Shown one piece after another: positions 9,553-61,704 of a DNA stretch of 64,000 nt. The position numbers and the translations under genes were made by a program. The notes below the pieces were generated by a model. It ran no database searches. It was given only the letters and a program-made list of their open reading frames with translations, and was not told the DNA's origin. Source of the DNA: an uncultured virus (IMG/VR IMGVR_UViG_3300020045_012925) (lineage: Duplodnaviria > Heunggongvirae > Uroviricota > Caudoviricetes); the IMG/VR virus record IMGVR_UViG_3300020045_012925, one strand, 5' to 3'. Position 1 is the stretch's first letter; each line of letters opens with the position of its first letter.

Positions 9553-12500
9553 ATGGCGTTATATGATTATGAAAGGCAACAATATCAACAGCCCAGAAAA
9601 CCAGTATCAAATGATGAATTATTTCGTCAAATGCAAGCCCAGGCTTTTGATAATCAGAATACATCTCAACCAGTTGAAGAAAGTTCTGGATTAAGACGCT
9701 TCGTTGGTGATCCATTAGTATCTCTTGGGCGTGGAGTTATTGGTGCTGGTGAAGGTTTTGTTGGGCTGGCAAATATTCCTACTGCTGGATATGCGGGAAA
9801 AGCATTAACAGATTTAACAGGCTATGATCCTGCAGAAGCAAAAAGAAGTTTAGCTACACTTTATACACCTGAACAACAGCAAGCATTTCAAGAAGTAGAA
9901 GCTGCTGAAGGATTCTTGCCTACATTAAAATCAAGGGTTCAAAACCCAAGTACTATTGCCCATACTGTCATAGAGTCTGTACCAAGTATGATAGGTGGCA
10001 GTTTGATTGGGCGTAAAGCTTTACAATATGCCCCTGGTATTGCTACAGCATTAGGTTCAAGAGCTGGTATGTTAGCTGGTGCTGCTGGAGAAGGCGCGAT
10101 GACAGCTGGTCAAATTGCAGAAACAGCCAGACAGCAATCTGATGATGGGTTGATAAATTTTAAACAAGCCGGACAAGCTGTAGCTGGAGGTATTGGTACA
10201 GGCGCTCTTGGTGTAGTTGGAAATGCTTTAGGTGGTAAACTTGCGAATAAGTTGGGTGTTGATATTACTGATATTGACACAGCTTTGGTTACAGGTAAAT
10301 TAGCTTCAAGTGGAAATATTGGTAAGCGCTTAATAGCTGGCGGAATATCTGAAGGTGTTTTTGAAGAATTACCTCAGTCTGTCCAAGAACAGATATGGAC
10401 GAATGCTGCGACAGGCAAAGATTTATATGAAGGCGTACAAGAAGCCGCTGCAACGGGATTATTGACAGGCGCTGCAATGGGTGCTGGAGCTAATGTTTTT
10501 AGTAACCAAAATATTGAGGATACAAAAAAGGAAGAAGTTAAACCCCCAAGAGAACAATTACTTAATGTTGATAAACAAATTTTTGATTTAGAACAAAATA
10601 CGCAGACTCCAGAATCACAGCAAACTCTTAATACTTTGTATGGTCAAAGAGATGAGTTATTAAAAAATATCAGGGGAATAACTGATACTCTTGTTACAAA
10701 ATATGAACAACCTTTATCAGATGATATAGATACCATATCCAGGCAGATAACTAATTTAGAAGCTTCTGGCAGAGATACGGTTGGTACGAAAGAGTTGCTG
10801 CAAGATCTTTATAGACAAAAAAAATTTTTAGCTAAACGAATTGAAGATGCTCCTTGGATAGAGACGGAAAGAGAAATTGAAAGACAGCAACGAGTTAGGG
10901 ATTATCAAAATAAACTTAAATCTATTGAATCCGATGAAACACTTAATGAAGAAGATAAAACTAATCAGATTAACTTATTAACTCAGCAGTATCAACAAGA
11001 TTATAAGCCAAGAGATTTTGCAACTGAAGCCAGAAAGACAATGCAAAAATCTGTTGAAAAATTAACAACTGGAACATTTATCCCAGCTGATCAAAATGAA
11101 CTTGATATGGCTATGGATGATTTAATGGCTCAATATGAAGAGCTTGCCAGAGAAGAAGAGGATATCAAGAAATCCGAAGAAATCATAAATAATCAAAAAC
11201 GCGTTCTTGGATTGTCTAAGCAAGTTGATATCTTGAAAGAAATTCAGCCTTTAAAAGATCGGGCTAAAGTTGAAAATATTTTCAATGTTCTAAGGATAAA
11301 AGAAAACCAAACAGATTTAACAGAACAAGAGAAAAAGACTTTAACGACTGCTAAGGCAAAATTAACTAAAGATAATAATCGAATTGAAAAGATTGCAAAA
11401 TTAAATCAAGAAATGTCTCAATTGTTTACTGATACTGATGAGACACTTATGGGGAGATTTCAGCGAGATTTTGATATACAGCGCCAGGAAAGTCAAGAAC
11501 AACAAGAATATAAGAATACGTTATATGATAATGCTATAAATTTTGTTACATCTCAAAATAAGATTAGTCCTCGTGGATTAATGGGACAGTTCGATTTGAC
11601 ATATCCTGAAGCTCAAGAACTTCTTAAAAACATGGAAGCTGAAGGAATTGTTGGACAATCTGGTAAGGCGAATATTAGAAATGTTAATAAGGTTTCAGAA
11701 GTGCGTTCAAATATTGAACATCCATTAGTAAATCAGATTACTGAACAGGAACAACCAATATTAGAAGAACAACCAATACAGTCAATACAACAAACTCCGT
11801 CAGTACAACCAGATATGCAAGGACAACAAATTGTCCAAGATGTTCCTGAGATGTCAAATGAAAAAAGTACGTTCACAGATGAACAGCCAGTAGAACAAAT
11901 AGTAAATCAACAACAGGAACAACCAATAGAACAAACAATAAATACTAAACAACCTCAAATCACTAAGCCAATAAAATCTGTTGAAGATTTCCAGACTGTT
12001 GAAGATCCATTAATCGCTGTACAAGAAGATATCCAGGCACGTCAAGATAATATTAGTGCATTAAAAGAAGAGCTTGAAGCTAATAAGCTTGAGCAATCCA
12101 GAATGGATATAAATGATCCTATGCTGGAAGAATTAAAGCTTGATGAACAAGCGATTAATGAGCAAATAAAAGAAGCTAATCGAGAGTTATTAATTACCAG
12201 ACTTACTCAGGGCAAAGGAAAGTTTCAAATAACTTATCATGGAACTCCACATCAATGGCAGCCTGAATTAGGCTTTCCTAATGGCCGTCCAAGATTAGAT
12301 AAGATTGGTACTGGAGAAGGTGCAGCTGCTTTTGGTCACGGCTGGTATTCTGCAGAAGTTTCAGAAACAGCTGAAAGTTATAAAACTTCAAATGAATCAA
12401 ACTTAATCAGTAGAATTGCTAATATATCTGATGTTTATGGAAATCCTACAAAAGGAAATGAAAAATCTCATGCAGAATTAACAAAACAACTTGAAAATTT

Positions 12501-15500
12501 ACCTGATTCAGGAGCACTTTATAAACTCGATATTCCAGATGAAACTATTCCAAAATTACTCGAATGGGACAAACCTATTTCAGAACAAAGTGAATATGTT
12601 AAATCTGCACTTAAAAAATTAGTATCTGATAAAGATTTTATTTCTTCTTTACGCCAAGATCGCGGATCACGTCCTGATTTTATAACAGGCGTTATGGGTA
12701 TTTCAGATGAACAGTTTCAAAACAAATATATCGCCAAAGGATATTCATTTAAAAATGGTGATATGTATAATCGTAAAGGGGATAAGTTACCTAAAATAGC
12801 TGTAGAGCAACAAAGAATGCTTGATGAAGAAAGTCAAGTATATCGTGATATGGGTCATATGTATCGTGATTTAGCTCATATGCTTGGTTCTGATGTTGCA
12901 GCATCAAATGCTTTATTAAATGTAGGGATTCCTGGGAATAAATATTTTGATGGTATGAGCCGAGCTGATGGTAAAGGAAGTTATAATTATGTAATCTGGG
13001 ATCAAAATGTACTTGATAAAATAGCCTTACTTGAACGTAATGGTGAAAAGATTAAAGCTATCCAAAAACAATATGAAACCAGAAATAAGCAAGAACCAAC
13101 CAAAGGCATTTCCTTATCAGACATTAAGAAGAACTTTAAAACTGAAGAAGTCTCCCAGGATGAAAATGGCATTATATCTGTAAAATTCAAAAATGGTAAA
13201 GGCATAACTTTTAATAGTGTTCAAGATGTCGGGAATGGCTTTATCCAGTTTGCCATAAATACTGGGCAGTTATCAAAAAATGGTAAGATCCTTGGAATTA
13301 CAACAGGAAGCAATGTTTTATTAGACAAAGATTTTGCAGATAACAAAACTGTATGGCATGAAACATTTCATGTATTTAAAAATCTTAACATGATAAATGA
13401 TGCTGAGTATAGCCATTTAGTTAAGGACTTTAATAAATTACGCAAAGCAGGCAAGTTACAATTTTCCTTAAGTACTCATGAAGATCCGATGGCAGCTTTG
13501 GAAGAAAACTTAGCTAACAGCTTTGCTCAAGTTATGACAAGTAGAGAGGATTATAGAAACACTGCACTTGGTAAAATGATCCAAAGAATAATGGATTTTA
13601 TGAAGAAGATGTTTTCTTTTGGGCAGCAATCATTATCTGGTTTTGCCAAAGAAGTTGAAATAGGAAAGATTTATAACAGAGAAATAAGTGATTTAGAAAC
13701 CGATACAGCTATGCCGAACTTCCAGTCCATTGGAAATACAAATTCAGAAGAATTCAAAAATTGGTTTGGTAAATCAGCAGCTAAAACAAAAGCAGGAGAA
13801 CCTGTAGTTTTTTATCACGGAACACCGAATAACTTTACTGTATTTGAAAACCGTCCTGGACAATCAACTTTACATGCAACATCAGGATTAGGTCACTTCT
13901 TCACTATGGACAAAAACTATGCTGAAGCATATTCCAAAGAAACTGGAAATGTAATGCCAGTTTATCTTAAAATGGAAAAGCCATACAAGATGTCTTTGGA
14001 AGAAGCTCAGTCATATGAAACCGTATTAGATGCGAAAGTTGCACAGAGATTGTTAAAGCGTAAAGGTTATGATTCTGTAATTATTCCTATTCCAGGATCT
14101 CAGCCAATGATTACAATTTTTAACTCTAACCAGATTAAATCTATCAACAATCAAGGTACGTGGGATATAAATAATCCTGATATAAGATTTGAGGTGCGTG
14201 AAAAATTAGGTATTCCCGAACAAGATATTCCTCAAGCTGAATATGATAAAATGCGCCAAGAAAACCGAGACCTAATTGGAAAGACAAAACAATTTTTGCG
14301 TTCCAAAGGACATGAAGTTAACCGAGAAATGAATAAATATCTCGGTGTGACTTCAACTAACTTGGCAAAAATCCATCCTATGTTGCGCGCTAAAGTAAGA
14401 CGGCTTGACTTTGATACATTACAAAGAATTCATGCAAACCTAAATATTGCTTTACCAGTATTAGAAGCTGTTAATAAAATGTCTTCTAATGAAAGATCAG
14501 ATTTTGATTGGGCAGTTAAGAATGGCGATTCAGGAAAGATTCTAAGCTTGACTGGCAAGTATAATTTTACTGAACAATATAATGCCTTAAGAGCTATGTT
14601 AGATCAGACACATGAAGATTTAAAAGATGTAGGATATAAGCCTGGTTTTGTAGATACTTATTGGCCAAGATTAATGAAAGATCGCGAAGGTTTCTTACAA
14701 GCAACTCGTGAGATATCTCGTGATCCAGTATTCACTCAAGCCTTGCAAGAGAAAGCAAGTAAGTTAGATAAAACTATTGAGCAGCTTGATCCAGATGTGC
14801 GGGCAGATATTATTGCACAAAAAATAATGGAAATAAAATCCGGCATGGGTGGACCTGCTAATATTCAAGGCAGAATCTTTGATAAGATCCCAATAGATTT
14901 GGGTAAATATTACATGGATAGTAGCGCAGCCTTGGTACAATACATATATTCAACAACTAAAAATATTGAAGCAAGAAAGTTCTTTGGTAAAGTTCCAACT
15001 AAGATTTCTAACGCGAAAAGTATTGTTCGTCAAAATAATGATAAATTAAATAAATTGCAAAACACAGCTGGTTTATTAGCCAGTCAAGATAGAGATACAA
15101 CAGATATTGATTTGCAAATAAAAGAAGTTAAAGATAACATTAAATTGCATGAAAAGGTAATTGAAGAATACGGCCAGACCAGAGACTTTACGGATAATAT
15201 TGGATCTTATATTGATGAAATTCGTGCGAGTCAATTGATTCCAGAAAAGAAGTTTCAAGAAAATGAAGGAATATTAAAAGATATTCTTAGTGCAAGATTT
15301 CATGAACGCGGAACATCTGGTATAGCCAACATTTATAAGAATGTATCTTTATTGGATACTATGGGATCACCATTATCAGCATTTACGCAGATCCAAGATC
15401 TTGGTTGGTCAATCTATGTTGGAGGACTTACTCCAAGAGGAATAACAAATACTGTTAAGAATATTGGAAAAGCTATAGCCAAACGATCAGATATTACTAA

Positions 15501-16590
15501 AGAAGATTTGGGACTCGAATGGATTGCTCAAGAATTCGCTGATGCTGATACATTAAGTTCTATAGTTAACAAAACATTTAAACTTATCGGATTGAATTAT
15601 GTAGACTCTATTGGTAAGGAATCATTAATTAATAATGCATATGATAATTATAGAGTTAAAGCAAAAGATAAGCCTAAATTATTTAAAGAAATCCGGCATA
15701 TGTTTAATTCTGATAAAGAAACAAATCAAGTAATAGAAGATTTACAAAATAATGTTAGAGATTCAAAAGATGTTCAGTTCTTAACATTTAGTAGGTTATT
15801 AGATTTTCAGCCTGCAGCAAAATCAGAAATGCCTGAAAAGATGTTAACTGCCGGGAATTGGAGATTGGCATACTTGTTGAAGACCTTTACCATAAAACAG
15901 TTTGATGTATTTAGGAATGAAGTATGGCATAAGCTTAAATCTGGAGATAAGGGTCAAGTTATTGAAGGATTACGAAATATGGCTTACTTAACAAGTATAA
16001 TGACCTTAGCAGGTGCTGGCGCAGATGAGTTGAAAGACTTCATATTAGGGAAAGAAACCAGATTTGAAGATCATGTAATAGAGAACTTTTTAACATTAGG
16101 TGGAGCTAATAGATATATTAGGATGCAGGTAAATCGTGAAGGCATAGGTACAGCTTTAGGCAAACAGGTATTACCTCCATTTAAATTTATCGATAACATT
16201 TATAAAGATATTTCACAAGATGTAACTGATTTACATTCAGCGAGATTTGTTGATTCAATACCAGTTGTTGGTAAACTTTATTACTGGCACTTAGGTAGAG
16301 GTGCAGAAACTAAAGAAAGTATTGCTGAACAAGATTTTAAGAAACTTGGAAAAGATGTTAGAGAATTCAAGAAGAGGCTGGAAAATAATACGGATAAACG
16401 TTCATTTGTACAGGCTAACATATCGGAATATAGGCAAATGAAGAGACATGAAAATGTTCAGGGAAATCTAAATAAATATACATCTTTAATTAATAAGTTG
16501 AAAAAAGTTCCTCAGACAGAAAATGTTAAACGTAGAATAAATCAATTGGAAGATCGGAAAGAACAGATAATGACGAGATATTTTATGTAA
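9553..16590 (+). CDS. Giant internal virion (ejection) polyvalent protein with FtsK-gamma-like, two ART-like and a HExxH metallopeptidase-like domain
   Basis: 2345 aa; G/A-rich N-terminus; LYDNAINFV..MEAEGIVG (FtsK-gamma-like); YHGTP..IGTGEGAAAFGHGWY; WHETFH; FKNWFG..VFYHGT..GHFFT..VMPVYL..GYDSV..QIKS..PDIRF (ART-PolyVal-like). Confidence 0.75.
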   Translation: MALYDYERQQYQQPRKPVSNDELFRQMQAQAFDNQNTSQPVEESSGLRRFVGDPLVSLGRGVIGAGEGFVGLANIPTAGYAGKALTDLTGYDPAEAKRSLATLYTPEQQQAFQEVEAAEGFLPTLKSRVQNPSTIAHTVIESVPSMIGGSLIGRKALQYAPGIATALGSRAGMLAGAAGEGAMTAGQIAETARQQSDDGLINFKQAGQAVAGGIGTGALGVVGNALGGKLANKLGVDITDIDTALVTGKLASSGNIGKRLIAGGISEGVFEELPQSVQEQIWTNAATGKDLYEGVQEAAATGLLTGAAMGAGANVFSNQNIEDTKKEEVKPPREQLLNVDKQIFDLEQNTQTPESQQTLNTLYGQRDELLKNIRGITDTLVTKYEQPLSDDIDTISRQITNLEASGRDTVGTKELLQDLYRQKKFLAKRIEDAPWIETEREIERQQRVRDYQNKLKSIESDETLNEEDKTNQINLLTQQYQQDYKPRDFATEARKTMQKSVEKLTTGTFIPADQNELDMAMDDLMAQYEELAREEEDIKKSEEIINNQKRVLGLSKQVDILKEIQPLKDRAKVENIFNVLRIKENQTDLTEQEKKTLTTAKAKLTKDNNRIEKIAKLNQEMSQLFTDTDETLMGRFQRDFDIQRQESQEQQEYKNTLYDNAINFVTSQNKISPRGLMGQFDLTYPEAQELLKNMEAEGIVGQSGKANIRNVNKVSEVRSNIEHPLVNQITEQEQPILEEQPIQSIQQTPSVQPDMQGQQIVQDVPEMSNEKSTFTDEQPVEQIVNQQQEQPIEQTINTKQPQITKPIKSVEDFQTVEDPLIAVQEDIQARQDNISALKEELEANKLEQSRMDINDPMLEELKLDEQAINEQIKEANRELLITRLTQGKGKFQITYHGTPHQWQPELGFPNGRPRLDKIGTGEGAAAFGHGWYSAEVSETAESYKTSNESNLISRIANISDVYGNPTKGNEKSHAELTKQLENLPDSGALYKLDIPDETIPKLLEWDKPISEQSEYVKSALKKLVSDKDFISSLRQDRGSRPDFITGVMGISDEQFQNKYIAKGYSFKNGDMYNRKGDKLPKIAVEQQRMLDEESQVYRDMGHMYRDLAHMLGSDVAASNALLNVGIPGNKYFDGMSRADGKGSYNYVIWDQNVLDKIALLERNGEKIKAIQKQYETRNKQEPTKGISLSDIKKNFKTEEVSQDENGIISVKFKNGKGITFNSVQDVGNGFIQFAINTGQLSKNGKILGITTGSNVLLDKDFADNKTVWHETFHVFKNLNMINDAEYSHLVKDFNKLRKAGKLQFSLSTHEDPMAALEENLANSFAQVMTSREDYRNTALGKMIQRIMDFMKKMFSFGQQSLSGFAKEVEIGKIYNREISDLETDTAMPNFQSIGNTNSEEFKNWFGKSAAKTKAGEPVVFYHGTPNNFTVFENRPGQSTLHATSGLGHFFTMDKNYAEAYSKETGNVMPVYLKMEKPYKMSLEEAQSYETVLDAKVAQRLLKRKGYDSVIIPIPGSQPMITIFNSNQIKSINNQGTWDINNPDIRFEVREKLGIPEQDIPQAEYDKMRQENRDLIGKTKQFLRSKGHEVNREMNKYLGVTSTNLAKIHPMLRAKVRRLDFDTLQRIHANLNIALPVLEAVNKMSSNERSDFDWAVKNGDSGKILSLTGKYNFTEQYNALRAMLDQTHEDLKDVGYKPGFVDTYWPRLMKDREGFLQATREISRDPVFTQALQEKASKLDKTIEQLDPDVRADIIAQKIMEIKSGMGGPANIQGRIFDKIPIDLGKYYMDSSAALVQYIYSTTKNIEARKFFGKVPTKISNAKSIVRQNNDKLNKLQNTAGLLASQDRDTTDIDLQIKEVKDNIKLHEKVIEEYGQTRDFTDNIGSYIDEIRASQLIPEKKFQENEGILKDILSARFHERGTSGIANIYKNVSLLDTMGSPLSAFTQIQDLGWSIYVGGLTPRGITNTVKNIGKAIAKRSDITKEDLGLEWIAQEFADADTLSSIVNKTFKLIGLNYVDSIGKESLINNAYDNYRVKAKDKPKLFKEIRHMFNSDKETNQVIEDLQNNVRDSKDVQFLTFSRLLDFQPAAKSEMPEKMLTAGNWRLAYLLKTFTIKQFDVFRNEVWHKLKSGDKGQVIEGLRNMAYLTSIMTLAGAGADELKDFILGKETRFEDHVIENFLTLGGANRYIRMQVNREGIGTALGKQVLPPFKFIDNIYKDISQDVTDLHSARFVDSIPVVGKLYYWHLGRGAETKESIAEQDFKKLGKDVREFKKRLENNTDKRSFVQANISEYRQMKRHENVQGNLNKYTSLINKLKKVPQTENVKRRINQLEDRKEQIMTRYFM

Positions 16591-16611
16591 CCTTATTTGG
16601 GAGAAATTATA

Positions 16612-16932
16612 ATGGCAAAAAATCTACATGTTAGAAATGGTAAAGATGGTTATGAATACACGGAAGTTATTGGAGACGGGAATAATGGGGAGACAATATT
16701 AATTCCTCCAGGCAAGGATAATGTTACGTGTACAATTATTGCCGGAGCTAATTCAGGTAAGTTTCAGTTCACTACTTCAACAGATGCAAAGGTGCTGGAT
16801 GGTACTGCAACTTGGATAGATTGGTCTAAAGGAGAAGTAACCGGTACTGATTATGACGTTCTGAACGGACCTGTTACAGCATTAAGGGGAGTAAGTACGT
16901 CAGGTGCAATCACAATTGAAGTTGTGAGGTAA
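16612..16932 (+). CDS. Hypothetical virion protein
   Basis: ATG at 16612 with GGGAG RBS; beta-rich 106 aa. Confidence 0.45.
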   Translation: MAKNLHVRNGKDGYEYTEVIGDGNNGETILIPPGKDNVTCTIIAGANSGKFQFTTSTDAKVLDGTATWIDWSKGEVTGTDYDVLNGPVTALRGVSTSGAITIEVVR

Positions 16933-19561: not shown

Positions 19562-19591
19562 GTGTTCACCTTGTGAACGAAAGTTAGAAAA

Positions 19592-29887: not shown

Positions 29888-30205
29888 TTATTCCTTTGGA
29901 AACATTGAAATAATCAATGATATTTGTTCTTCAGTTAATTTGCCTAAAGCCTTATTTACGGCTCCTATAGGATCAGCGAGCATCTTATTTTTTTTGTTTG
30001 CCGAATTTCGTTTGGCTATATTCTTTAGGGCGCTCTTGGTTATTTTTGTTGAACCAGCTTTTGCAGCACTCAAGGATGACAAGCGTTTATTACGAGTTAG
30101 TTCCACCAAAGCTGTTTTGTCTTTCAAAGTTAGGTCTAAGAAAGATGTGCAATATATTCTGGACATTAGTGTCATGATAAATTCCTGTTCATAAAGTGAA
30201 CACAC
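29888..30205 (-). CDS. Hypothetical basic protein (start probably downstream, at MTLMS)
   Basis: ORF with C-terminal 'ALGKLTEEQISLII' motif. Confidence 0.45.
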   Translation of the reverse strand: MCSLYEQEFIMTLMSRIYCTSFLDLTLKDKTALVELTRNKRLSSLSAAKAGSTKITKSALKNIAKRNSANKKNKMLADPIGAVNKALGKLTEEQISLIISMFPKE

Positions 30206-37055: not shown

Positions 37056-37165
37056 TTGTTGTCTCCTAATTATTAGCGTTCAAAAAAAGTTTGAAGAAGA
37101 ATAAAGATTTTTTGTTTATGTAATTGGTGTTCATTTTTTGAACGCTAATTAGAAAGTTTAACTGA

Positions 37166-46437: not shown

Positions 46438-46860
46438 GATTTATTGGCCTTCTCATTGGTTAGATGGTCAAATTTGCCTGATTGAATCTTATTTGTGATC
46501 CAATTAAATTGGGTTTTAGTCAGACTTCCGTTTACAGCGAATGTTTTGTCCGGAAAAATGGCACCGCGATACATTTCTTCCCTGGTGCGAATGACGATTT
46601 TGCCCTCATAGGTAATTTTTATGGTTGTGTTAGTGAAGGTTCGCTGGCAATATGAGGAAGATTTCATATTTGTGTCCTTTTCAAAATTAATTGTTTATGT
46701 AATGGCTGTTCAATTTATGAACAGACTTTTGAACGGGATTAATCTTTTTTTGTGTATGTAATTTTGTCATGCATATAATCAATGATGATGGAAAAATGCA
46801 GGCCGACTATAAATCCTGATAAACCAGCTAAGATTGTGAGTAATAAATATTTTTGTGACA

Positions 46861-52836: not shown

Positions 52837-53232
52837 GATTTATTTTTCTATAACTTTTTGTTGTCCCTAACTTTTGTGTCCCTGTTCTGGTATGGCTGTA
52901 CATATTCCTTGAGTATACCATATTGGTGTAATGGATGCCTCGGTTCTATATAACAGTATACCTTTTTTATATACATTTTTGGAATTTCATATTTTAAATG
53001 CCGGCATATTTTATTGGAATCCAGTTATTTTAAATGCCAATAATTTAGTGAAAAGAATAAGTTTGAACCATTCAAGATTTATTGTTTCCAAGATTAGTTG
53101 TATCCCGGTGAGTTATAATAAATAATGTTTTGTTCACACCATGAACGGGCCATTATTATATAGCCGGGCCGGGAATATGAATGCCGGCAAAAGTTACCAA
53201 ATAAACCTTTTTGCCACAATCAATATTTACCC

Positions 53233-53925: not shown

Positions 53926-55395
53926 ATGCCTGATTTATCCACTATGAGCAGGGATGAAAAAGAGCATTATCTAAAATTACTGAAAACCAAAAACATTAGG
54001 TTAAAGCAAAATAAGATAGCTCAATTCTTTCCTGAAGACGGTCCACTTAGTAGGCACAACTATCCCAAGCATATGGAATTCTTTCGGGCAGGCAAGAAAT
54101 TTCCCCAGCGCTGTATCATGGCAGCAAACCGAATAGGAAAGTCAGAATCAATCGGCGCGTATGAAACTACTTGTCACCTCACAGGAAGATATCCTAATTG
54201 GTGGGAGGGAATCCGCTTCAATCGGCCGATAAATTGCTGGGTAGCGGGAACTACTGGAACAACAGCCCGAGACATTGTACAATACAAACTAATCGGGCCA
54301 CCTGAAGAATTTGGAACAGGTTTAATCCCTGAGAAATACATAATCAAGACAACACCAAAAGCCGGCGGTGTACCAAATGCAGTAGACACAATATTAATCA
54401 AGCATATTTCAGGTGGTATGAGCAGATGCAAAATTAAGTCCTATGCTGAAGGTAGGAAGTCATTTGAAGGTACAGAGCAAGATTTAATTTGGCTTGATGA
54501 AGAATGTCCCATAGACATATACACTGAATGCCTTACTCGAACAATGACAACTAACGGATTAATTATGTTAACATTCACCCCGTTAGAAGGTATGACTGAG
54601 ACGGTTTTACAATTCATGCCGGATGGTCAATTGATAGAAAACCAATCAGGTGGTAAGTGCCTAATCACTGCTACTTGGGATGATGCTCCACACCTAACTA
54701 AATTACAGAAAGAAACCCTTTACAATGCCTTACCGCCTCATCAGCGAGAAGCAAGATCAAAGGGTGTTCCTCAATTAGGCTCAGGTGCAATTTATCCAAT
54801 TCTCGAATCAAATATTACTGTAGAAGATTTTGCCATTCCCAAACATTGGCTTCACTGTTATGCTATGGATGTCGGCTGGAATAGAACTGCAGCAATTTGG
54901 GCAGCCACAGATCCTACGACAAAAATAACTTATTTATATTCCGAATATTATCAAGGTAACGCTGAACCGATTATCCACGCTGAAGGAATAAAATCCAGAG
55001 GTGCTTGGATACCCGGAGTGATTGATCATGCCGCGCATGGACGCAGTCAAGTAGATGGACAAAACCTTTTTGACATTTATTACAATTTGGGTTTAGACAT
55101 ATCTAATGCAAACAAAGCTGTCGAAGCTGGCATATACACCGTGTGGCAATTATTATCTACAAACAGACTAAAAGTTTTTCGTTCTCTCGGTTGTTGGTTT
55201 ACAGAGTTCAGGCAATATTGCCGGGATGTGGATGGAAAAATAATGAAGAAGAACGACCACCTGATGGACTGTACAAGGTATTTGATTATGTCAGGTTTGG
55301 ATCGTGCAATATCTCGACCATATTGGGAATTCGAAGCTTGGGAAGAAAGTGATATATCATCAACGCGTGAATGTAACGCAATTACTGGATATTAA
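53926..55395 (+). CDS. terL: Terminase large subunit
   Basis: AANRIGKS Walker A, WLDEE Walker B, TFTP coupling motif, MDVGW and NDHLMDCTRY nuclease. Confidence 0.93.
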   Translation: MPDLSTMSRDEKEHYLKLLKTKNIRLKQNKIAQFFPEDGPLSRHNYPKHMEFFRAGKKFPQRCIMAANRIGKSESIGAYETTCHLTGRYPNWWEGIRFNRPINCWVAGTTGTTARDIVQYKLIGPPEEFGTGLIPEKYIIKTTPKAGGVPNAVDTILIKHISGGMSRCKIKSYAEGRKSFEGTEQDLIWLDEECPIDIYTECLTRTMTTNGLIMLTFTPLEGMTETVLQFMPDGQLIENQSGGKCLITATWDDAPHLTKLQKETLYNALPPHQREARSKGVPQLGSGAIYPILESNITVEDFAIPKHWLHCYAMDVGWNRTAAIWAATDPTTKITYLYSEYYQGNAEPIIHAEGIKSRGAWIPGVIDHAAHGRSQVDGQNLFDIYYNLGLDISNANKAVEAGIYTVWQLLSTNRLKVFRSLGCWFTEFRQYCRDVDGKIMKKNDHLMDCTRYLIMSGLDRAISRPYWEFEAWEESDISSTRECNAITGY

Positions 55396-55398
55396 TAA

Positions 55399-57513
55399 AT
55401 GGCTATGTTAGAAGAAAATCTTGATCCTTCCCAGCTTGTTATGGAACCACAATCCGAGGGAATGCCGAATATTTGGGCAGAAGAAACTCCAGTAGAAGAC
55501 ATAATCAATCCGCCTGCACAAGATATGGATATCGACATTAAGGTTGAAGAAGAACTTTTGTCTGCTGAAGCAATGTTGATGCTAACAAATCTTGCAGACA
55601 AACAATCTAAGGAAGTAATCACCGATCTGACGACCAAAGTATTTGAAGGATATAAAATTGATTTAGATTCCCGAACTGAATGGGAAGAACTAAATAAGCA
55701 GATCATTGATCTTATAAAGCTCTTAGTAAAGAAGAAAACATACGCTGGTGATGTTGTAGCGAATATTAAGTATCCCCTAATCACCAATGCATGTATTCAA
55801 TTTGCAGCTCGGGCATATCCTGAAATAATAAAAGGTAATGATGTTGTAAAAGGTAAAGTAATTGGCAATGATCCTAATGGCCTAAAGTTTGATCGCGCCC
55901 AAAGAATTTCTAACTTCATGTCCTATCAGGTTCTCAATGATATGGAAGATTGGGAAGAAGGTGTGGATCAGTTATTATTTACTTTACCTGCAATAGGTTG
56001 CGCGTTCAAAAAAACTTACTTTGATGCAATTGAGAAGCAGCACGTATCTAAGATGATATTCGCTGACGATTTGGTTGTAAATTATTTTACTCCATCAATT
56101 GATCGGGCTCCCAGAATTACTCATCGCATATATCTTTATCAAAACGAAATAGTTAGTCGCATAAATTCCGGGATGTTTACAAAGTTTGATGTGGCCGAAT
56201 TAGGTCAGGCAACTTCAGAATCAGGTCAGGCAGACGATGAAACACCACATTTATTTTTGGAACAACATCGCTGGTATGATTTAGACAAAGATGGTTATCA
56301 AGAACCTTATGTTGTTACAGTCCATTATGAAACACAAAGATTAGTTAGGATTGTTCCAAGATTTGCTTCAGATGGAATTATTCGCGCTGACAATGGTAAG
56401 ATTATAAAAATTAATCCAGAGCAATATTTTACCAGGTTCTTATTTATGCCGGCCATAGATGGTGGATTTTATGGTATGGGCTTTGGAAGTTTATTACTTA
56501 GTACAAACTCCGCAGTAAACACCATAACCAATCAATTATTAGACTCTGGAACATTATCAAATCGGCAGTCAGGATTCCTTGGTAGGGGATTACGATTAAC
56601 TAAAGGCAAATCAATTCAGCTTGGTGTTGGAGAATGGAAGCCAGTAGAATCCACTGGGGATGATATTCGTAAGAACGTTTTCCCAATGCCGGTACGCGAA
56701 CCAAGTCCTGTATTATTCCAGTTGTTAGGTATGCTAATCGATGCTGGTAAAGAATTATCCGGCATGACTGAAATATTATCCGGTCAAAGTCCAGGCGCTA
56801 ATGTGCCTGCTGAATCTGTTTTGGCATTAATCGAACAAGGCTTGCAAGTATATTCTGCCATCCATAAACGGATTCATAGATCACAATATAAAGAGTTTCA
56901 AAAGTTAAGAAGGTTAAATGCTCTTTATTTGGATCAAATGTTTTATAGCTCCGTATTAGATGATGAAGCTGCTATTGTGCAGTCTGACTTTTTTGCAAAA
57001 GATTTTGATATTGTACCTGTATCAGATCCTAACTCTACCACAATGATGCAGCGCATACTTAAAGCTAAGGCCATGTTAGAATTAAGGGGCCAGGGATTAA
57101 ATGATCAAGAAATCCTCAAGCGTTATCTATTATCCATGGATATTGAAGATATTGATATGATCATACCTAAGGAAGAACAAGAAAATCCGATGGAGCAATT
57201 ATCTTTGCAGAAACTCCAATTAGAGCTGGAAGAACTTTCAAGTAAGATTAAAAATTTGGATGCAGATACTGAGTTGATATTGGCAAAAGTTCAGACTGAA
57301 TCAATAGAGCCTGATAGAAAACTTTCGGGCATTACCAATGACAAGGATAAACTAACCTTACAGGGACTGTCTGCATTTAATCAGATGCAACATAATGATA
57401 AAAAGTTAGGATTAGAAGATAAGAAAATCGGCGTTCAACAAGTGAACAAGATTAATCAAAATACAAACTTTATGAAAAGAGAATACGGTTTAGAAACTAA
57501 TAATCAGGAATAA
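55399..57513 (+). CDS. Portal protein
   Basis: 704 aa after terL; 'YPLITNACIQFAAR', 'GCAFKKTYFD', 'GFYGMG', 'NQLLDSGTLSN'. Confidence 0.88.
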   Translation: MAMLEENLDPSQLVMEPQSEGMPNIWAEETPVEDIINPPAQDMDIDIKVEEELLSAEAMLMLTNLADKQSKEVITDLTTKVFEGYKIDLDSRTEWEELNKQIIDLIKLLVKKKTYAGDVVANIKYPLITNACIQFAARAYPEIIKGNDVVKGKVIGNDPNGLKFDRAQRISNFMSYQVLNDMEDWEEGVDQLLFTLPAIGCAFKKTYFDAIEKQHVSKMIFADDLVVNYFTPSIDRAPRITHRIYLYQNEIVSRINSGMFTKFDVAELGQATSESGQADDETPHLFLEQHRWYDLDKDGYQEPYVVTVHYETQRLVRIVPRFASDGIIRADNGKIIKINPEQYFTRFLFMPAIDGGFYGMGFGSLLLSTNSAVNTITNQLLDSGTLSNRQSGFLGRGLRLTKGKSIQLGVGEWKPVESTGDDIRKNVFPMPVREPSPVLFQLLGMLIDAGKELSGMTEILSGQSPGANVPAESVLALIEQGLQVYSAIHKRIHRSQYKEFQKLRRLNALYLDQMFYSSVLDDEAAIVQSDFFAKDFDIVPVSDPNSTTMMQRILKAKAMLELRGQGLNDQEILKRYLLSMDIEDIDMIIPKEEQENPMEQLSLQKLQLELEELSSKIKNLDADTELILAKVQTESIEPDRKLSGITNDKDKLTLQGLSAFNQMQHNDKKLGLEDKKIGVQQVNKINQNTNFMKREYGLETNNQE

Positions 57514-57529
57514 TTAGAAAGGAATAATA

Positions 57530-57948
57530 ATGGAAAAATTCATTAGTATAGCTATGGTTGAAGCTTTTGAAATGTCTCGTAAAGATTATAATATTTATCG
57601 TGGTTGGGAATTACCTAAAGATGAAAATGGAGATGATAAAGGATATCTTGTAGAACTTTTCAATGTAGGCAAATCAAATCATCCTGATCATGAGGGATAT
57701 ATTTCTTGGAGTCCAAAAGAAGTTTTTGAAAAAATGTATCGTAAAGCTGAAGGTATATAGATAAAAGCGTATGTAGAACTGGCTGGAATGGAAAAGGTAT
57801 GTATATTTATCTTGATAAGATTATGCAGCTTGATAAAGAACCTATTTGTCCCTTTATTTCAATGCACAATGCCCAAGGTGAATGTCAACCAGGCTGGCTT
57901 GCATCCCAGGCTGATATTTTAGCAGAAGATTGGATTATATTAAATTAA
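57530..57948 (+). pseudogene. Frameshifted fusion of a conserved phage domain with DUF2829/Tad2-like anti-Thoeris domain
   Basis: 57530-57760 YNIYRGW..GYLVE..YISWSPKEVFE; -1 frame 57760-57948 DKSVCRTGWNGKGMYIYL..QPGWLASQADILAEDW. Confidence 0.7.
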
Positions 57949-57950
57949 AA

Positions 57951-58402
57951 ATGAAAAAACAAATACGCATAAGTATTTCTCAAGATGAATTAACATCAAT
58001 TCCATGCAAGGCTATAGAAGCCTTTTTAATTGGCAAATTATCCTCTGCTGGCATACCAGTTGAAGGTATAATCTTATTCGGTGGCGTATCAACTGGCAGA
58101 CTAACATGCTGGGAGAGCTTATCCGATAAAAAGGTTAACTACTTATGGGAATATGACGCATGATTATTACTCCAGAAGCATTTGCCGAATGGCAAGCACA
58201 TCCTGTGACAAGAGAAATTATCGGAGCAATAAAATCTTCGAAGCAAACCTTAATGGAAAGCTTTGCTAATGGTGTAACATTATCCCAATCCGCGGATATA
58301 ACACATGGTTTGACGCACAAATTAGTTGGTCAAATAGAAGGTTTGAACCAATTATTAAATATTACAATAGATAACGATGTAAAGGAATCAGAAAATGAAT
58401 GA
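57951..58402 (+). CDS. Two small hypothetical genes (57951-58163, 58160-58402)
   Basis: Coupled ORFs; second has 'EWQAHPVT' motif common after portals. Confidence 0.5.
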
Positions 58403-58706
58403 AGCAAAAATAATGCCTACAGGCGGGCATGTGTTAATTAAACCTAATAAGGTAGAAGAAGTAACTAAGGGCGGAATAATTTTGACGCAAACTACTCGGG
58501 ATTCTGAACAGGCAGCCGCTACACTGGGTCAAGTAATAACTATCGGACCTAATGCTTGGAAAGATATCGATGATGGTCTTCCATGGTGTAAGGAAGGAGA
58601 TAAAGTTAGTTATGCCAAATATGCCGGAGTATCCATGCTCGGGGCAGACAAAGAAAATTATGTCCTCATAAATGATACTGACATTTTAGCAGTTTTAGAT
58701 TTTTAA
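58395..58706 (+). CDS. groES: GroES-like co-chaperonin
   Basis: PTGGHVLIK..EEVTKGGIIL..GQVITIGP..GDKVSYAKYAG..LINDTDILAV. Confidence 0.9.
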   Translation: MNEAKIMPTGGHVLIKPNKVEEVTKGGIILTQTTRDSEQAAATLGQVITIGPNAWKDIDDGLPWCKEGDKVSYAKYAGVSMLGADKENYVLINDTDILAVLDF

Positions 58707-58720
58707 CTTAGGGGAAGATT

Positions 58721-59638
58721 ATGATTGAAGAATTTATTACAGATATCATTGCAGCCTCTACAGTAGAGGAACCAGCCAAGGCTGAAGAAACCCAAATAAA
58801 TGTACAATCAAAAGAAGCAGAAACTACAACAATAAACGATACTCCAAATAATCTTGATAACCAACAATCCGATGTTTCAGTAGAATCTTTAGCAAAACAA
58901 CTCGGATGGACTCCAGATCATAAGGGAGACTCATATGTCGATGCGGCTACTTATATTTTAAAGTCCCGCGATATTCAGGCTTCTATGAAAGATCACAATA
59001 AAGATCTTAAAAATCAACTCTCAACCATGCAGGGTTCCATAGAAGCTTTAAAGATTCACAATGAACGCGTATACAAAACTGAACTTACTCGTCTCCAGCA
59101 AGAATTAAAAGAATTAACCCAGAAGAAAAAAGCTGCCGTCGAACTTGCTGATGTAGATACTGTAGATCAATTAGATGCTCAAATCGATTCTGTTAAACAA
59201 TCAATTAATGAGCCTGTACCTCAAACAGTATCTACAACTAATCCGGTTTTTGATGAATGGATTAAAGACAATTCCTGGTATTTAACTGATACTGAAATGG
59301 CAGGTTATGCTGATCAGATAGCTCAGCAATATATAGGCGCGCCACCAGATCGGATTTATAAAGCAGTTAGAAATAAAGTGGCTGAAATTTGGCCTGAAAA
59401 GTTTGAACCTTCCAAATCAGATAAAACAACCCAAGGTAAGCTTAATGAATTAAATCAAACAAAACTAATTGGGCCGGCAAGTCCAGTAGAAGGTGCATCA
59501 CATACAAAAACCTCAGCTAAGTTTACTAAGGCAGATTTAACGCCTGAACAAATTTCAATTATGAAACAATTTACTGGCGCAGGAATAATGACTGAAGACC
59601 AGTATATAAATGATATTGCAAAATTACAGGGAGCCTAA
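58721..59638 (+). CDS. Scaffolding protein
   Basis: Acidic N-terminus, 'AKQLGW', coiled coil, 'WIKDNSWY'; upstream of capsid genes. Confidence 0.65.
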   Translation: MIEEFITDIIAASTVEEPAKAEETQINVQSKEAETTTINDTPNNLDNQQSDVSVESLAKQLGWTPDHKGDSYVDAATYILKSRDIQASMKDHNKDLKNQLSTMQGSIEALKIHNERVYKTELTRLQQELKELTQKKKAAVELADVDTVDQLDAQIDSVKQSINEPVPQTVSTTNPVFDEWIKDNSWYLTDTEMAGYADQIAQQYIGAPPDRIYKAVRNKVAEIWPEKFEPSKSDKTTQGKLNELNQTKLIGPASPVEGASHTKTSAKFTKADLTPEQISIMKQFTGAGIMTEDQYINDIAKLQGA

Positions 59639-59640
59639 TC

Positions 59641-60048
59641 ATGGTAGACCAAACCAATATAGAAAAGCCAAGTGCTAACAATAGGAAACGTGTTCCACTT
59701 GGGACAAGAAATGTATTAACTGCACCGAAGAAATCCGGATTCGTGCGCCGATATGTAAATGATGAGCCAGATCGTATTCAAATGTTCAAAGATGCTGGCT
59801 ACGTTGTAGTGGATGAAAACTTACCAGTAGGTGATCCTAAAATCGGACAGGCTTCAAGCTTGGGAAGCATTACAAATCCATCTGTAGGTGGAGGAAAGAA
59901 GGCTATACTTATGGAAATTAAACAGGAATATTATGATGAAGACCAAGCTGCTAAGGTTGCCAAGATTAAGAAGATCGAAGATGAGATGAAACGCAATACT
60001 CGTCCCAGTTCCGATGCAGAGAACTTTGGTAAAGTTTCAATTTCTTAA
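59641..60048 (+). CDS. Conserved head-module hypothetical protein
   Basis: 'GFVRRYVND..RIQMFKDAGY..ILMEI' motif. Confidence 0.55.
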   Translation: MVDQTNIEKPSANNRKRVPLGTRNVLTAPKKSGFVRRYVNDEPDRIQMFKDAGYVVVDENLPVGDPKIGQASSLGSITNPSVGGGKKAILMEIKQEYYDEDQAAKVAKIKKIEDEMKRNTRPSSDAENFGKVSIS

Positions 60049-60078
60049 CTAATTTTATTTATTTTATGGAGTTTTATT

Positions 60079-60666
60079 ATGGCAAATTCTGATGCTCCGT
60101 CCGGATTTAAACCAGTTAAACATTTAAATGGTAATCCCTGGAACGGAAAAGTAAATGTGTATTATATTCCAGCTACTGATGGTACGGCCACTTTCATCGG
60201 TGATGCTGTTAAGTCTGCTGGATCAGCTACTTCCGATGGCTTATATCCTACTGTGGCTCAGGCTGCTGCTGGAGATGCTATTCGAGGTATTGTAATAGGA
60301 TTTTCTGATCAACCTTATATTTCTGTTAATACAGATAATTTGAATGAAAAATATCGTGCAGCTTCTGTGGCCAGATATGCTTTTGTTGTAGATGATCCGG
60401 ATGTAATTTTTGAAGTTCAAGAAGATAGTGATGGTGGTTCTATCGCTGCAGCTTCTGTAGGTTTATCTTGTGATTTTGTTGTAGGTTCTGGATCTACTGT
60501 TACAGGCAAATCTGCGATGGAAGTTGATTCTTCTGATGTAGGAACTGCTGCCGGGCAGTTTAAACTTTTGCGGGTCTCAAATAAAGTTGGGAATGAACTT
60601 GGTAATTATTGCAAATGGGAAGTATTGTTCCGCGAACATGAAATGCTGGCAGCTACTGACGTTTAA
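60079..60666 (+). CDS. Capsid decoration/cement protein
   Basis: MANSDAPSGFKPV..FIGDAV..VVDDPDVIFEVQ; immediately before MCP. Confidence 0.65.
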   Translation: MANSDAPSGFKPVKHLNGNPWNGKVNVYYIPATDGTATFIGDAVKSAGSATSDGLYPTVAQAAAGDAIRGIVIGFSDQPYISVNTDNLNEKYRAASVARYAFVVDDPDVIFEVQEDSDGGSIAAASVGLSCDFVVGSGSTVTGKSAMEVDSSDVGTAAGQFKLLRVSNKVGNELGNYCKWEVLFREHEMLAATDV

Positions 60667-60701
60667 TTAATTTCAGTAACTACAATTAAGGAGATATTAA
60701 A

Positions 60702-61622
60702 ATGGGTGTTATTACTACTAATAATTTTGCCAAGGATCTTATTCCTGGGGTAAAAACCTGGTTCGGCCAAAAATATAAAGAGTATCCAATTGAGTATTTA
60801 GATATCTTTGAGAAGATGAACTCAACTCGGGCATTTGAAGAAGAAGTTGGTGTAACCGGATTTGGTCTGGCAGCTATAAAAAATGAAGGTACAAACATTG
60901 CTTATGATGAACAAGAGCAGGGCTTTGTATCAAGATATACACATGTCACATACGGATTAGGTTTTATTATTACCCGTGAAATGTATGAAGATGGTATTGC
61001 GGTTACTGTCGCCTTGAGACGTGCAAATAGTTTGGCCTTTTCAATCCGGCAGACCAAAGAAATCGTTGGTGCTAATATATTGAATAGAGCTTTTACTGCA
61101 GCTTATACTATGGGATCTAATTCAGATGGCAAGGAATTGTGTGCTACTGATCATCCTAATAAAGCAGGCGGTACTTGGAGAAATGAATTATCTACTGCAG
61201 CTGATTTGAGTGAATCTGCTCTTGAACAGGCTTGTATTGATATTGCTGGCTTCACTACAGATAAAGGTTTAACTATTGCCATTCGTCCAAAAGCTTTGAT
61301 TATTCCACAGGCTCTGGAATTTGATGCTTATAGAATTTTGGAATCCATTGGGCAGTCTGGAACTGCAAATAATGATATAAACGCTTTGCGTTCCAGTGGT
61401 AAGTTTCCTCAAGGTATTATGGTTAATCATTATCTTACGGATACTGATGCATGGTTTATTAAAACTGATTGCCCGGACGGTCTTAAATATATGGAACGTC
61501 GTGCAGATTCTTTCGGCACAGAGAATGACTTTGATACTGAGAATGCAAAATTCAAAGCTACATTTAGAGGCAGCTTTGGTTGGTCTGACCCAAGAGGAAT
61601 TTTTGGTTCTCCTGGAGCTTAA
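60702..61622 (+). CDS. Major capsid protein
   Basis: 306 aa; 'STRAFEEE..GFG.A..K.EG', 'LIIPQALEF', 'HYLTDTDAWF', 'FGWSDPRG'. Confidence 0.85.
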   Translation: MGVITTNNFAKDLIPGVKTWFGQKYKEYPIEYLDIFEKMNSTRAFEEEVGVTGFGLAAIKNEGTNIAYDEQEQGFVSRYTHVTYGLGFIITREMYEDGIAVTVALRRANSLAFSIRQTKEIVGANILNRAFTAAYTMGSNSDGKELCATDHPNKAGGTWRNELSTAADLSESALEQACIDIAGFTTDKGLTIAIRPKALIIPQALEFDAYRILESIGQSGTANNDINALRSSGKFPQGIMVNHYLTDTDAWFIKTDCPDGLKYMERRADSFGTENDFDTENAKFKATFRGSFGWSDPRGIFGSPGA

Positions 61623-61704
61623 TTAATTGTTGTTCATTTTATGAACCTAACTTAATGAGCCGACCACTTGGAAGGCTCACATAAGTTTTATATAGGAGAA
61701 ATTT

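Follow-up and report, generated by a model that had tools for sequence, protein, structure and literature searches.

We identified a dispersed palindrome, GTTCA-N5-TGAAC, in a 64,000-nucleotide stretch of DNA (hereafter, the window) from an uncultured virus of the Caudoviricetes (IMG/VR record IMGVR_UViG_3300020045_012925). The window also encodes a protein that joins a ParB-type domain, a helix-turn-helix (HTH) block and a DNA methyltransferase. From the sequence evidence, we lean towards the view that the palindromes are cognate duplex docking sites, parS-like or operator-like, of this ParB-HTH-methyltransferase fusion. An earlier note on the same DNA had proposed a parS-like system that loads at these sites and spreads. 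A protein-read palindrome far above background, with the fusion as its best candidate reader, stands from that proposal; the cytidine triphosphate (CTP) clamp, sliding and methylation in cis are suggested by analogy only.

A palindrome recurs throughout the window

We found eight exact copies of GTTCA-N5-TGAAC in the window, all at the positions given in the earlier note (Table 1). Dinucleotide shuffling predicts 0.04 copies, and none of 100 shuffles reached eight. In Markov simulations (300 for each order) the mean was 0.06 copies at order 1, 0.10 at order 3 and 0.09 at order 5, with never more than two, and the analytic expectation from pentamer counts is 0.096 copies. These values (0.04–0.10) agree with a previous hand estimate of fewer than 0.1 copies, for which a count against a Markov background had been proposed. 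The single pentamers are not enriched (GTTCA, 84 observed versus 87.9 expected; TGAAC, 73 versus 70.8); what is enriched is their occurrence as a pair with set spacing. The G+C content of the window is 33–38%.

Sites with at most one mismatch number 13, versus 2.2 expected. One-mismatch copies start at 25709, 62750, 16767, 38359 and 48576. The first two had been recognised before; the other three had been missed, as had a single copy with a four-base spacer (N4) at 11871, which stands beside the eight N5 copies. The base preceding the core is a pyrimidine (Y) in all eight exact sites, and the base following it is a purine (R) in seven, with a C at 61632. The previously proposed consensus YGTTCA-N5-TGAACR thus holds throughout on its left side and with one departure on its right. 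Neighbouring sites are 4.2–10.6 kb apart, in line with the 4–11 kb first estimated.

Most exact copies are intergenic, as had been reported, and two lie inside genes: 11705 in the gene for a giant polyvalent protein and 57433 in a gene that weakly matches phage portals. The copy at 30187 falls within an open reading frame (ORF) called from a GTG start. It is probably intergenic, because 11 nt further on, on the minus strand, there is an ATG that has an AGGA ribosome site. This copy heads a gene run that ends in the ParB-methyltransferase gene. Locus L154 of a relative (L-numbers denote loci, G-numbers genomes or fragments of relatives) has an equivalent site 482 nt upstream of its ParB-methyltransferase gene, also heading the fusion's gene run.

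The sites are conserved in related phages

We collected relatives from IMG/VR by a TerL search, which gave 274, and by a ParB-methyltransferase search, which gave 55. The first 85 related loci (1,021,432 bp) contain 125 copies of GTTCA-Nk-TGAAC with k=4, 22 with k=5, 5 with k=6, 7 with k=0 and 4 with k=8; every other k occurs 0–1 times. The inverse arrangement, TGAAC-Nk-GTTCA, occurs 0–4 times per k in the same loci. Of the 119 family loci that are 10 kb or longer, 109 have at least one site. Ten relatives searched whole contain 5–8 sites each and no copy of the backwards-read pattern.

Although six genomes analysed for placement are 92% coding, 25 of their 39 sites lie outside called ORFs (binomial P 7e-19). 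Sites recur at syntenic positions in relatives: 5–10 nt past the capsid stop, upstream of terS, ~2.1–2.4 kb into the giant gene and at arm junctions. The position past the major capsid protein stop is the most regularly kept. Four complete relatives (G001 and G003–G005) carry a copy 2.07–2.44 kb into the giant gene. Reading frames of the giant-gene sites were derived by hand from coordinates and sequences; the window's copy at 11871 shares its frame with the sites in G003 and G004, which read F-T-N-E.

Spacer length is a genome-wide property, and in-gene sites also follow their genome's class. N5 spacers are used by the window, its close kin L001 and L002, and by L010–L013 and L154–L160, while most others use N4. 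Mixed genomes are few; one is the window, with its single N4 copy, and another is G002, which has N4, N5 and N6 copies. In a ParB-methyltransferase tree, the N4 genomes form one clade (32 rows, support 98), with N5 genomes branching below, and spacer class needs one change. A TerL tree, read by eye, needs 2–3 changes and places the N5 clade as sister to the N4 locus L019 (support 96). The pattern comes from quick midpoint-rooted trees with differing taxon sets, and we take it as a hint.

Many N4 relatives have a palindrome inside terS, ~290 nt before terL (e.g. L004 9704, L009 9731 and L024 9711). These terS copies have the form GTTCAC-N-GATGAAC, which reads V-F-T-D-E, a peptide also used by the giant-gene copies. 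In both genes, one recurrent coding solution seems to accommodate the DNA site.

Features of a double-stranded, protein-bound site

We aligned the flanks of 143 unique sites. The core carries symmetric extended arms of 8 bp on each side, AACTKGNY-GTTCA-YWWR-TGAAC-RNCMAGTT. The spacer begins with Y and ends with R, and the N4 form is therefore a 16-bp palindrome, YGTTCAYWWRTGAACR. Watson-Crick pairing between the flanks of these sites is not above the column-composition expectation (z ≤ 1.7 at 13 of 15 positions). The extremes are the largest excess, at position 10 (z 3.1), followed by z 1.7 at position 12, and a deficit at position 1 (0.29 observed versus 0.45 expected, z -4.3). When both strands were folded, neither folded consistently better; two sites, 37129 and 53132, have complementary flanks and fold to -15 kcal/mol. 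Within 100 bp of full sites there are 32 extra half-sites, a density 1.6-fold higher than elsewhere (4.13 versus 2.54 per kb).

Other kinds of element were considered and rejected. The flank covariation test, the folding of both strands and Rfam, which matches only a tRNA, argue against a hairpin or RNA element. An intrinsic terminator does not fit the GTTCA/TGAAC stem, which has only two G-C pairs of five and no U-tract, and no terminator was called at the sites; the hairpin at 30208–30222 is an element separate from the neighbouring site at 30187. A directional promoter was rejected because an asymmetric flank derived by expectation maximisation (CTGGnT on one side) has no link to gene direction (17 sites co-oriented, 22 opposed). 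This asymmetry probably reflects redundant orthologous sites. Sigma-70 scans were uninformative, with promoter-like matches no more frequent in the window than in shuffles (80 versus 84.5 and 99 versus 96.9).

The absence of flank covariation, together with the lack of a fixed orientation to transcription, argues for a protein-bound palindrome rather than a hairpin or promoter. We conclude that the palindrome has the sequence properties expected of a double-stranded site read by a symmetric dimer, and not those of a hairpin, a terminator or a phage-polymerase promoter.

A ParB-HTH-methyltransferase fusion as the candidate reader

The candidate reader contains a ParB CTPase-type fold (residues 1–~95), an HTH block (~123–150), a low-confidence linker (~200–250) and a beta-class N6/N4 methyltransferase (261–452). 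The ParB_N match (Pfam accession PF02195) has an E-value of 7.6e-11 and 42.4 bits versus a cut-off of 26.3, and a phmmer comparison with ParB/Noc chains covers residues 9–108. The N6_N4_Mtase match (Pfam accession PF01555) has an E-value of 5.4e-20; PDB sequence matches of this domain include the DpnA-type 5hek_A (E-value 1.1e-8) and CcrM 6pbd_A. The characteristic boxes GERR (54–57), ENATR (89–93) and DPPY (266–269) are present, as the earlier note had described, and the HTH that it named is recovered by structural alignment. DPPY and the S-adenosylmethionine (SAM)-binding FAGSG (424–428) are invariant in 10 of 10 orthologues, and the methyltransferase C-terminus is apparently active.

A model of residues 1–250 (predicted local distance difference test score, pLDDT, 73.4) has helices at 125–132 and 136–151. 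Structural alignment (VIA) matches its N-domain to M. xanthus ParB 7bnk_B (Z 11.2, root-mean-square deviation (rmsd) 2.6, 83 aligned). Over both domains, the model aligns to ParB-parS 6t1f_C (Z 10.0, rmsd 11.2, 143 aligned, model 6–176), Noc-NBS 7ol9_A (Z 10.1, 147 aligned) and Noc 7ng0 (Z 10.5, 149 aligned); the high rmsd of two-domain alignments is due to the angle between domains. Comparison with KorB gives Z 10.5 for 8qa8_C and Z 10.0 for 8qa9_A (157 aligned). The HTH alone matches the VirB core 3w2a_A (Z 5.8).

The HTH block, WGYRET..L.CS.GGLSTDL, is the best-conserved stretch of the N-terminal half, and it stays conserved in proteins with as little as 35% identity across this half (43% across the full length). 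The CTPase boxes vary more between clades. All seven N5-type proteins aligned keep AGERR and ENxxRK, while all eight N4-type proteins aligned have DG[LF][HRN]R and [SA]NMD[RD][KE] in place of the canonical boxes; G54, R57 and N90 are invariant in both types. The wider group has GERR or, in many proteins, GGRR. A hydrolysis-driven cycle is thus not a conserved requirement. The box change and the switch to N4 share a single tree branch, so their coincidence carries little weight.

The fusion has no canonical ParB C-domain, residues 261–452 being the methyltransferase. A homodimer model scored 0.68, versus 0.00 for the best control, with an interface formed by methylase residues 322–386, agreement in at least 54% of contacts between runs and a partner pLDDT of at least 68. 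Of 30 proteins solved as pairs of one chain, 20 reach the 0.68 mark, compared with 1 of 23 solved as single chains; since beta-class methylase dimers have already been solved, this score may reflect likeness to those structures. The fusion is thus predicted to dimerise through its methylase domain. No ParA/CbiA-type family was found in Pfam scans of window ORFs, where the only AAA match is the Sak4-like AAA_24. This bears out the previous remark that no ParA is visible, and we therefore do not file the locus as a partition system.

Association between the sites and the fusion

All seven relatives that are at least 90% complete carry both the fusion and 5–8 sites, and no relative with the motif but without the fusion, or the reverse, was found in the family. 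The co-occurrence check proposed in the earlier note is therefore not informative here. Two N5-clade fragments, G008 and G009, have no ParB-methyltransferase match; both end before its expected position, and they count neither way.

The most divergent family members, L157–L160, each have a site inside the ParB-methyltransferase gene itself, in the variable linker (+685 to +702). The site reads S-x-x-E-H in three of these and V-H-V-V-N, in another codon phase, in the fourth. The use of two codon phases suggests selection on the DNA rather than on the peptide. This placement resembles that of B. subtilis parS-359, which lies within parB (PMC4442127).

Covariation of the motif and the HTH had been proposed as a further check. 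We asked how well protein identity predicts a shared half-site, using primase identity as a proxy for common descent. The recognition helix is a good predictor (area under the curve (AUC) 0.868), followed by the HTH (0.853), the ParB N-domain (0.852), the primase (0.845) and the methylase (0.781). The primase thus predicts nearly as well as the recognition helix, and the test does not set the HTH apart from shared descent.

Other palindromes accompany the fusion in distant phages

Similar fusions occur in more distant phages. In Desulfofustis phage LS06-2018-MD01 and Vibrio phage vB_VspS_VS-ABTNL-3, ParB_N+N6_N4_Mtase fusions adjoin PolA and primase genes. Both phages share only replication genes with the window (ParB-methyltransferase, PolA and primase); a nuclease, an ATPase, a UvrD-type helicase or a 174-aa protein is also shared in single phages. 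The Desulfofustis phage has six dispersed copies of GTCCCA-N3-TGGGAC (expected 0.003), and the Vibrio phage has four of CAATCG-N6-CGATTG (expected 0.005). A further locus, L177, has five copies of TTGAATAA-N3-TTATTCAA in 21 kb. The Desulfofustis phage palindromes (L173, OP947158.1, 249–41295) have long symmetric arms, TTGCTAT-GTCCCAA-N-TTGGGAC-ATAGCAA, of up to 29 bp; one is found just before terS and another just before an annotated transcriptional regulator gene.

We also assembled a wider, primase-anchored set (80 of 465 primase-linked loci). The fusion is encoded in 75 of these 80 loci, and the other five hold at most 3.6 kb upstream of the primase. The set contains many lineage-specific 15-bp palindromes in the same register, with half-sites GTTCA, GTTTA, ATTAA, GGTAA and others. 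A strict test for exact 6-mer palindromes (at least three dispersed copies at p < 1e-8, in loci of at least 15 kb) was passed by 17 of 58 wider-set loci and by 0 of 28 random IMG/VR loci. None of four other phage genomes has three or more dispersed copies, the two copies in T7 falling within its terminal repeat. Applied to 20-kb windows of the window family, the exact 6-mer test gave 0 of 58; it is under-powered there because the sixth base is only Y.

One related case lies outside this set. ON073792 (L176, filed as 'Aphanizomenon phage Yong-DA') has five dispersed GGTGTTCAGACGTCTGAACACC-type palindromes (GTTCAGAC-GTCTGAAC), one of them inside parB; their outer half-site and GGT/ACC flank match those of the window family. 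The alignment of the ON073792 ParB with the window protein (28% identity, E-value 6e-13) extends through the first HTH helix, and the recognition helices differ (AGINQMLRL versus GGLSTDLAL in the window protein). In contrast to the window, ON073792 encodes ParA and a standard ParB without a methylase, together with a replication protein and many polysaccharide-synthesis genes; it has no annotated virion genes. Its gene content looks like that of a plasmid, and we infer that the palindromes are its parS. ON073792 and Staphylococcus phage EW are other kinds of element, whose ParB has no methylase. The FtsK-gamma domain of the giant protein was set aside as a reader, because Pfam at E ≤ 0.001 finds no match to it in the giant proteins of two distant palindrome-bearing phages.

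Weighing the candidate reader and its alternatives

Taken together, co-occurrence, the conserved HTH, the predicted dimer, the in-gene sites, the lineage-specific palindromes of distant phages and the related site of the ParA/ParB replicon ON073792 lead us to infer that the fusion is the best candidate reader. Several observations weigh against this assignment. All family members with the relevant region carry both motif and fusion, so co-occurrence cannot single the fusion out, and the covariation of motif and HTH is not separable from shared descent. Nor does each recognition helix pair with a site of its own: the GTTCA half-site is shared by several different helices, and SVSTAIKRAE is found with GTTTA as well as ATTAA. 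The fusion gene of N4-type genomes is 3.4–3.6 kb away from the closest site. Pfam's ParB HTH model gave no match to the fusion, and the variation of catalytic box residues across clades weakens the CTP-hydrolysis part of the proposal. Among distant phages, L178, whose protein is a 63% relative of the Vibrio phage protein, has a single copy of the Vibrio phage motif in 21 kb, and 19 of 58 wider-group loci have no repeated exact 6-mer palindrome. Many small conserved ORFs without an assignable fold could encode another reader.

The sites could instead be operators of another phage-encoded dimeric DNA-binding protein, such as a global regulator or a replication or packaging factor, with the ParB-methyltransferase a mere neighbour. 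We consider this a possible but unlikely explanation. Some sites do look regulatory: they lie upstream of terS in the divergent region, past hairpins (19564 and 30187) or 11–165 nt upstream of start codons, and 53132 is followed 87 nt downstream by a strong sigma-70-like promoter. TerS has a weak N-terminal HTH signal (GerE, E-value 1.3e-3, below cut-off), sites lie in or near terS in many relatives, the many conserved small ORFs belong to no family, and phylogeny does as well as the ParB HTH in the covariation test. However, the giant gene, the portal gene, the convergent junction and the position 9 nt past the capsid stop are poor places for operators, and site orientation is unrelated to transcription. 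Among the genes detectably shared with the distant phages that bear palindromes, moreover, a Pfam/PHROG DNA-binding module occurs only in the ParB-methyltransferase (the shared 174-aa protein has no assignable family), and the only other HTH hint, an IclR-like ORF, has no match in the relatives compared. We think it improbable that the methyltransferase domain, as a dimeric beta-class enzyme, itself recognises the palindrome, with the sites serving as regulatory methylation marks. The predicted symmetric dimer through this domain, the invariant DPPY and FAGSG and the adenines in each half-site would suit such a role, and the palindrome differs between lineages whose methylase domains differ too. 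Yet a shared half-site is predicted least well by methylase identity (AUC 0.78), and the HTH rather than the methylase forms the best-conserved block of the N-half, alongside an invariant half-site. An orphan phage methylase would also give no reason for the ~80-fold enrichment, intergenic placement and synteny of the sites, and the symmetric 8-bp arms on each side are longer than typical methylase targets.

Binding of a host factor, such as a nucleoid protein or global regulator exploited by the phage, seems slightly less probable still. The N5/N4 switch and the half-sites of distant lineages could mirror different hosts, and the family has left traces of its surroundings in one contig of a Bacteroidales metagenome-assembled genome (MAG) and in wastewater runs. 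However, the same half-site is found in relatives of 30–46% G+C, a range that suggests varied hosts, and N4, N5 and N6 copies coexist in single genomes. Close relatives from the same kinds of sample carry different half-sites, which fits a fast-evolving phage protein better. We give least credence to a nucleic-acid hairpin, which would act in RNA as a terminator or processing site, or in single-stranded DNA as an N4-type hairpin promoter used by a virion RNA polymerase. A 5-bp stem with a 4–6 nt loop would tolerate changes in loop length, the flanks at 37129 and 53132 are complementary, some copies lie past gene ends, and the phage encodes a giant virion-type protein. Set against this, flank pairing is at or below chance, the stem sequence itself is invariant and not only its pairing, and neither folding nor the transcribed strand favours one orientation. 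In the PDB the giant protein matches FtsK gamma alone, and Pfam, PHROG and PDB searches of window ORFs turned up no family of RNA polymerases or sigma factors.

A possible mechanism

If the fusion does read the palindromes, dimerisation via its methyltransferase domain would take the place of ParB's C-terminal dimerisation domain, and two HTH modules would read the two YGTTCAY half-sites. The enzyme would then be nucleated on phage DNA at 5–9 places per genome. More speculatively, docking could be followed by nucleotide-gated clamp closure and sliding, such that methylation, or KorB-like gene control, would spread in cis on phage DNA only. A stricter form of this model is a site-loaded sliding methyltransferase, in which docking leads to ring closure with the methylase dimer as the third side, and the enzyme is trapped on phage DNA for processive methylation in cis. 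This form is drawn by analogy with known clamps, and we regard it as plausible but unlikely.

Comparison with known systems

KorB, with its dispersed operators on plasmid RK2, is the closest characterised analogue in layout. RK2 carries 12 OB sites, and KorB has a ParA partner, IncC. As in the window phage, a ParB-family CTPase fold and HTH are combined with multiple copies of one palindrome on a replicon of ~60 kb (PMC11790492). KorB is described as a sliding CTP clamp that acts 'up to 1.5 kb away', and it differs from the fusion in having its own C-terminal dimerisation domain, a clamp-locking partner (KorA) and repression as its output (PMC11790492). In the window phage, the C-terminus is a methyltransferase, neither ParA nor KorA was seen, and the replicon is a phage.

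The ParB-parS and Noc-NBS systems likewise use a 16-bp palindrome read by two HTH modules, the length of the N4 form. The parS consensus has outer TGTT..AACA, which the N4 form shares, and the fusion's N-domain and HTH align structurally to both complexes. The window phage differs from these systems in lacking ParA and in having sites genome-wide rather than clustered near the origin. The family further departs from ParB-parS in that an odd-length 15-bp N5 form is ancestral, an enzyme replaces the C-terminal domain and boxes II/III vary between clades.

Fusions of PF02195 and PF01555 have been surveyed as a class that is commoner in phages and prophage regions, and ParB-fold/methyltransferase fusions are listed among the commonest unexplained phage ParB architectures (PMC12704722). 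The part of the survey used here gives the class no DNA site or function beyond 'perhaps in anti-defense', and the N6_N4 fusion is not among the nucleotide-binding proteins named there (PMC12704722). To this class the window contributes a candidate cognate site, together with an HTH that separates the two domains and a dimer predicted to form through the methylase. HerB (YfjB), from the leading region of the F plasmid, also combines a ParB-like CTP-binding domain with an HTH and a non-canonical dimerisation module in a clamp-like dimer (PMC13370423). HerB targets the host chromosome, and its description, as far as it is drawn on here, reports no consensus motif or parS-like repeat (PMC13370423), whereas the window phage has a sharp palindrome on the element's own DNA and an enzyme as its dimerisation module. 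In the 5mYOX system, a phage ParB-like protein is needed for a thymine dioxygenase to act on double-stranded DNA (PMC13229309). There, the two are separate polypeptides, the ParB has no obvious DNA-binding domain, mutation of its nucleoside triphosphate (NTP) residues has no effect and the modification is oxidation (PMC13229309). Word searches of open-access text found no description of sites such as those reported here.

Genomic context and occurrence

The window is organised into three arms (Table 1). The in-gene palindromes of the giant gene lie just past the FtsK-gamma segment. The gp5.9-like ORF beside the ParB-methyltransferase gene suggests an anti-defence gene run. The separate glycyl-radical ORF and radical-SAM protein may form a phage 'spare-part' glycyl-radical module, which would hint at an anaerobic host. 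Near the polymerase gene are a ThyX with a long N-terminal extension, a dCMP deaminase and a MazG-like protein. The early region has unusually long non-coding stretches at 50869–51682 (814 bp) and 52696–52930 (235 bp), and consensus sigma-70-like promoters point leftward at 52836–52808 and 52733–52705. No integrase or repressor family is among the Pfam/PHROG matches of window ORFs.

Table 1. Palindrome copies, the candidate reader and other features of the window.
Feature	Coordinates	Strand	Remarks
N5 copy GTTCAAATATTGAAC	11705..11719		In giant polyvalent-protein gene, ~2.15 kb from its start
N4 copy GTTCACAGATGAAC	11871..11884		In giant gene, in frame as F-T-D-E
N5 copy	19564..19578		In 76-nt gap between convergent ends of structural (+) and replication (-) arms; just past GGGAGAA/TTCTCCC hairpin
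N5 copy	30187..30201		Directly past CCGGGC/GCCCGG terminator-like hairpin (30208-30222); 11 nt before ATG of first gene of a run
N5 copy	37129..37143		Intergenic, minus arm, between 36243-37055 and 37166-37417
N5 copy	46708..46722		Intergenic, minus arm, 40 nt upstream of gene 46434-46667; extra GTTCA half-site 13 nt off
N5 copy	53132..53146		Early/late divergent region, 165 nt upstream of terS; same relative place kept in relatives
N5 copy	57433..57447		In 3' end of probable portal gene, 80 nt before stop
N5 copy	61632..61646		9 nt past major-capsid gene stop
Probable degenerate copy, one mismatch, GTTCAGAAAATGAAT	62750..62764		Intergenic; left flank (aataatgtt) like that of 53132
ParB-HTH-methyltransferase gene, 471 aa	27963..29378	-	Candidate reader of the palindromes
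Structural arm	1-19515	+	Includes 2345-aa polyvalent protein
Replication/early arm	19592-52695	-	PolA, primase, NAD ligase, ThyX, dCMP deaminase, Sak4-like ATPase, PD-(D/E)XK nuclease, UvrD-like helicase
Packaging/head arm	52931-64000	+	terS, terL, probable portal, major capsid protein
Giant polyvalent protein, 2345 aa	9553-16590	+	ART-PolyVal ADP-ribosyltransferase 1413-1534; FtsK-gamma winged-helix 654-711
Glycyl-radical ORF, 112 aa	20925-21263	-	PF13597; only C-terminal end of NrdD matched (positions 511-562 of 562)
Family A DNA polymerase	24124-26658	-	N-terminal uracil-DNA-glycosylase-superfamily domain PF03167 (residues 32-182), then 3'-5' exonuclease and polymerase domains
T7 gp5.9-like RecBCD inhibitor, 58 aa	29384-29560	-	PF25708, E 1.2e-14; immediately upstream of ParB-methyltransferase gene
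tRNA-Leu, anticodon TAA	40313-40389	-	Sole Rfam/ARAGORN match in window
174-aa protein without assignable family	40732-41256		Conserved; common to single distant phages
IclR-like HTH hint	41308-41601		E 2.8e-4
Radical-SAM protein	43645-44523	-	Separate from glycyl-radical ORF
Probable portal	55399-57513	+ (arm)	Weak match 9lbz_A, E 5e-4
GroES-like co-chaperonin Cpn10	58395-58706	+	E 9.5e-18; among head genes

No near-identical cultured phage was found; the best TerL matches are P22-like phages (51–53%), which have the terminase alone in common with the window. Window DNA, or part of it, is present in 20 public runs from 10 studies, in 18 of the 20 at shares of 0.20–0.55. Four public RNA libraries examined are from wastewater and contain contigs 90–99% alike to the window. 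Transcript ends were sought in these libraries and set aside, as the assembled contigs belong to related wastewater strains and starts, ends and strand are not readable from them. A cross-backbone test in bacterial genomes gave one match, an 11.6-kb family contig (L170, DAOWGM010000156.1) binned in a Bacteroidales MAG, with a 60% identical ParB-methyltransferase and one N4 site. This contig is either a host hint or a binning artefact. Ribosome sites of the window phage are of a clear GGAGG type, which is unusual for Bacteroidota.

Implications

The window and several hundred uncultured relatives provide a testable 15/16-bp target for ParB-methyltransferase fusions. Natural variants are available in the change of spacer from N5 to N4 and in the half-site changes of sister lineages, and replacement of the ParB C-domain by a methylase dimer offers a structural rationale. 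If another protein is the reader, a large and uncharacterised group of environmental phages would still share the palindrome as a conserved control site across their genomes. If the fusion binds the sites, the load-at-a-site principle of ParB, KorB and Noc would extend to the delivery of a DNA-modifying enzyme, and this could explain how a protective modification is confined to the phage's own genome. Were the methylase also to slide, the phage would be shielded from restriction without methylating, and thereby protecting, host or competitor DNA. Spacer and half-site variants would then act as a specificity code that denies co-infecting relatives a share in the protection.

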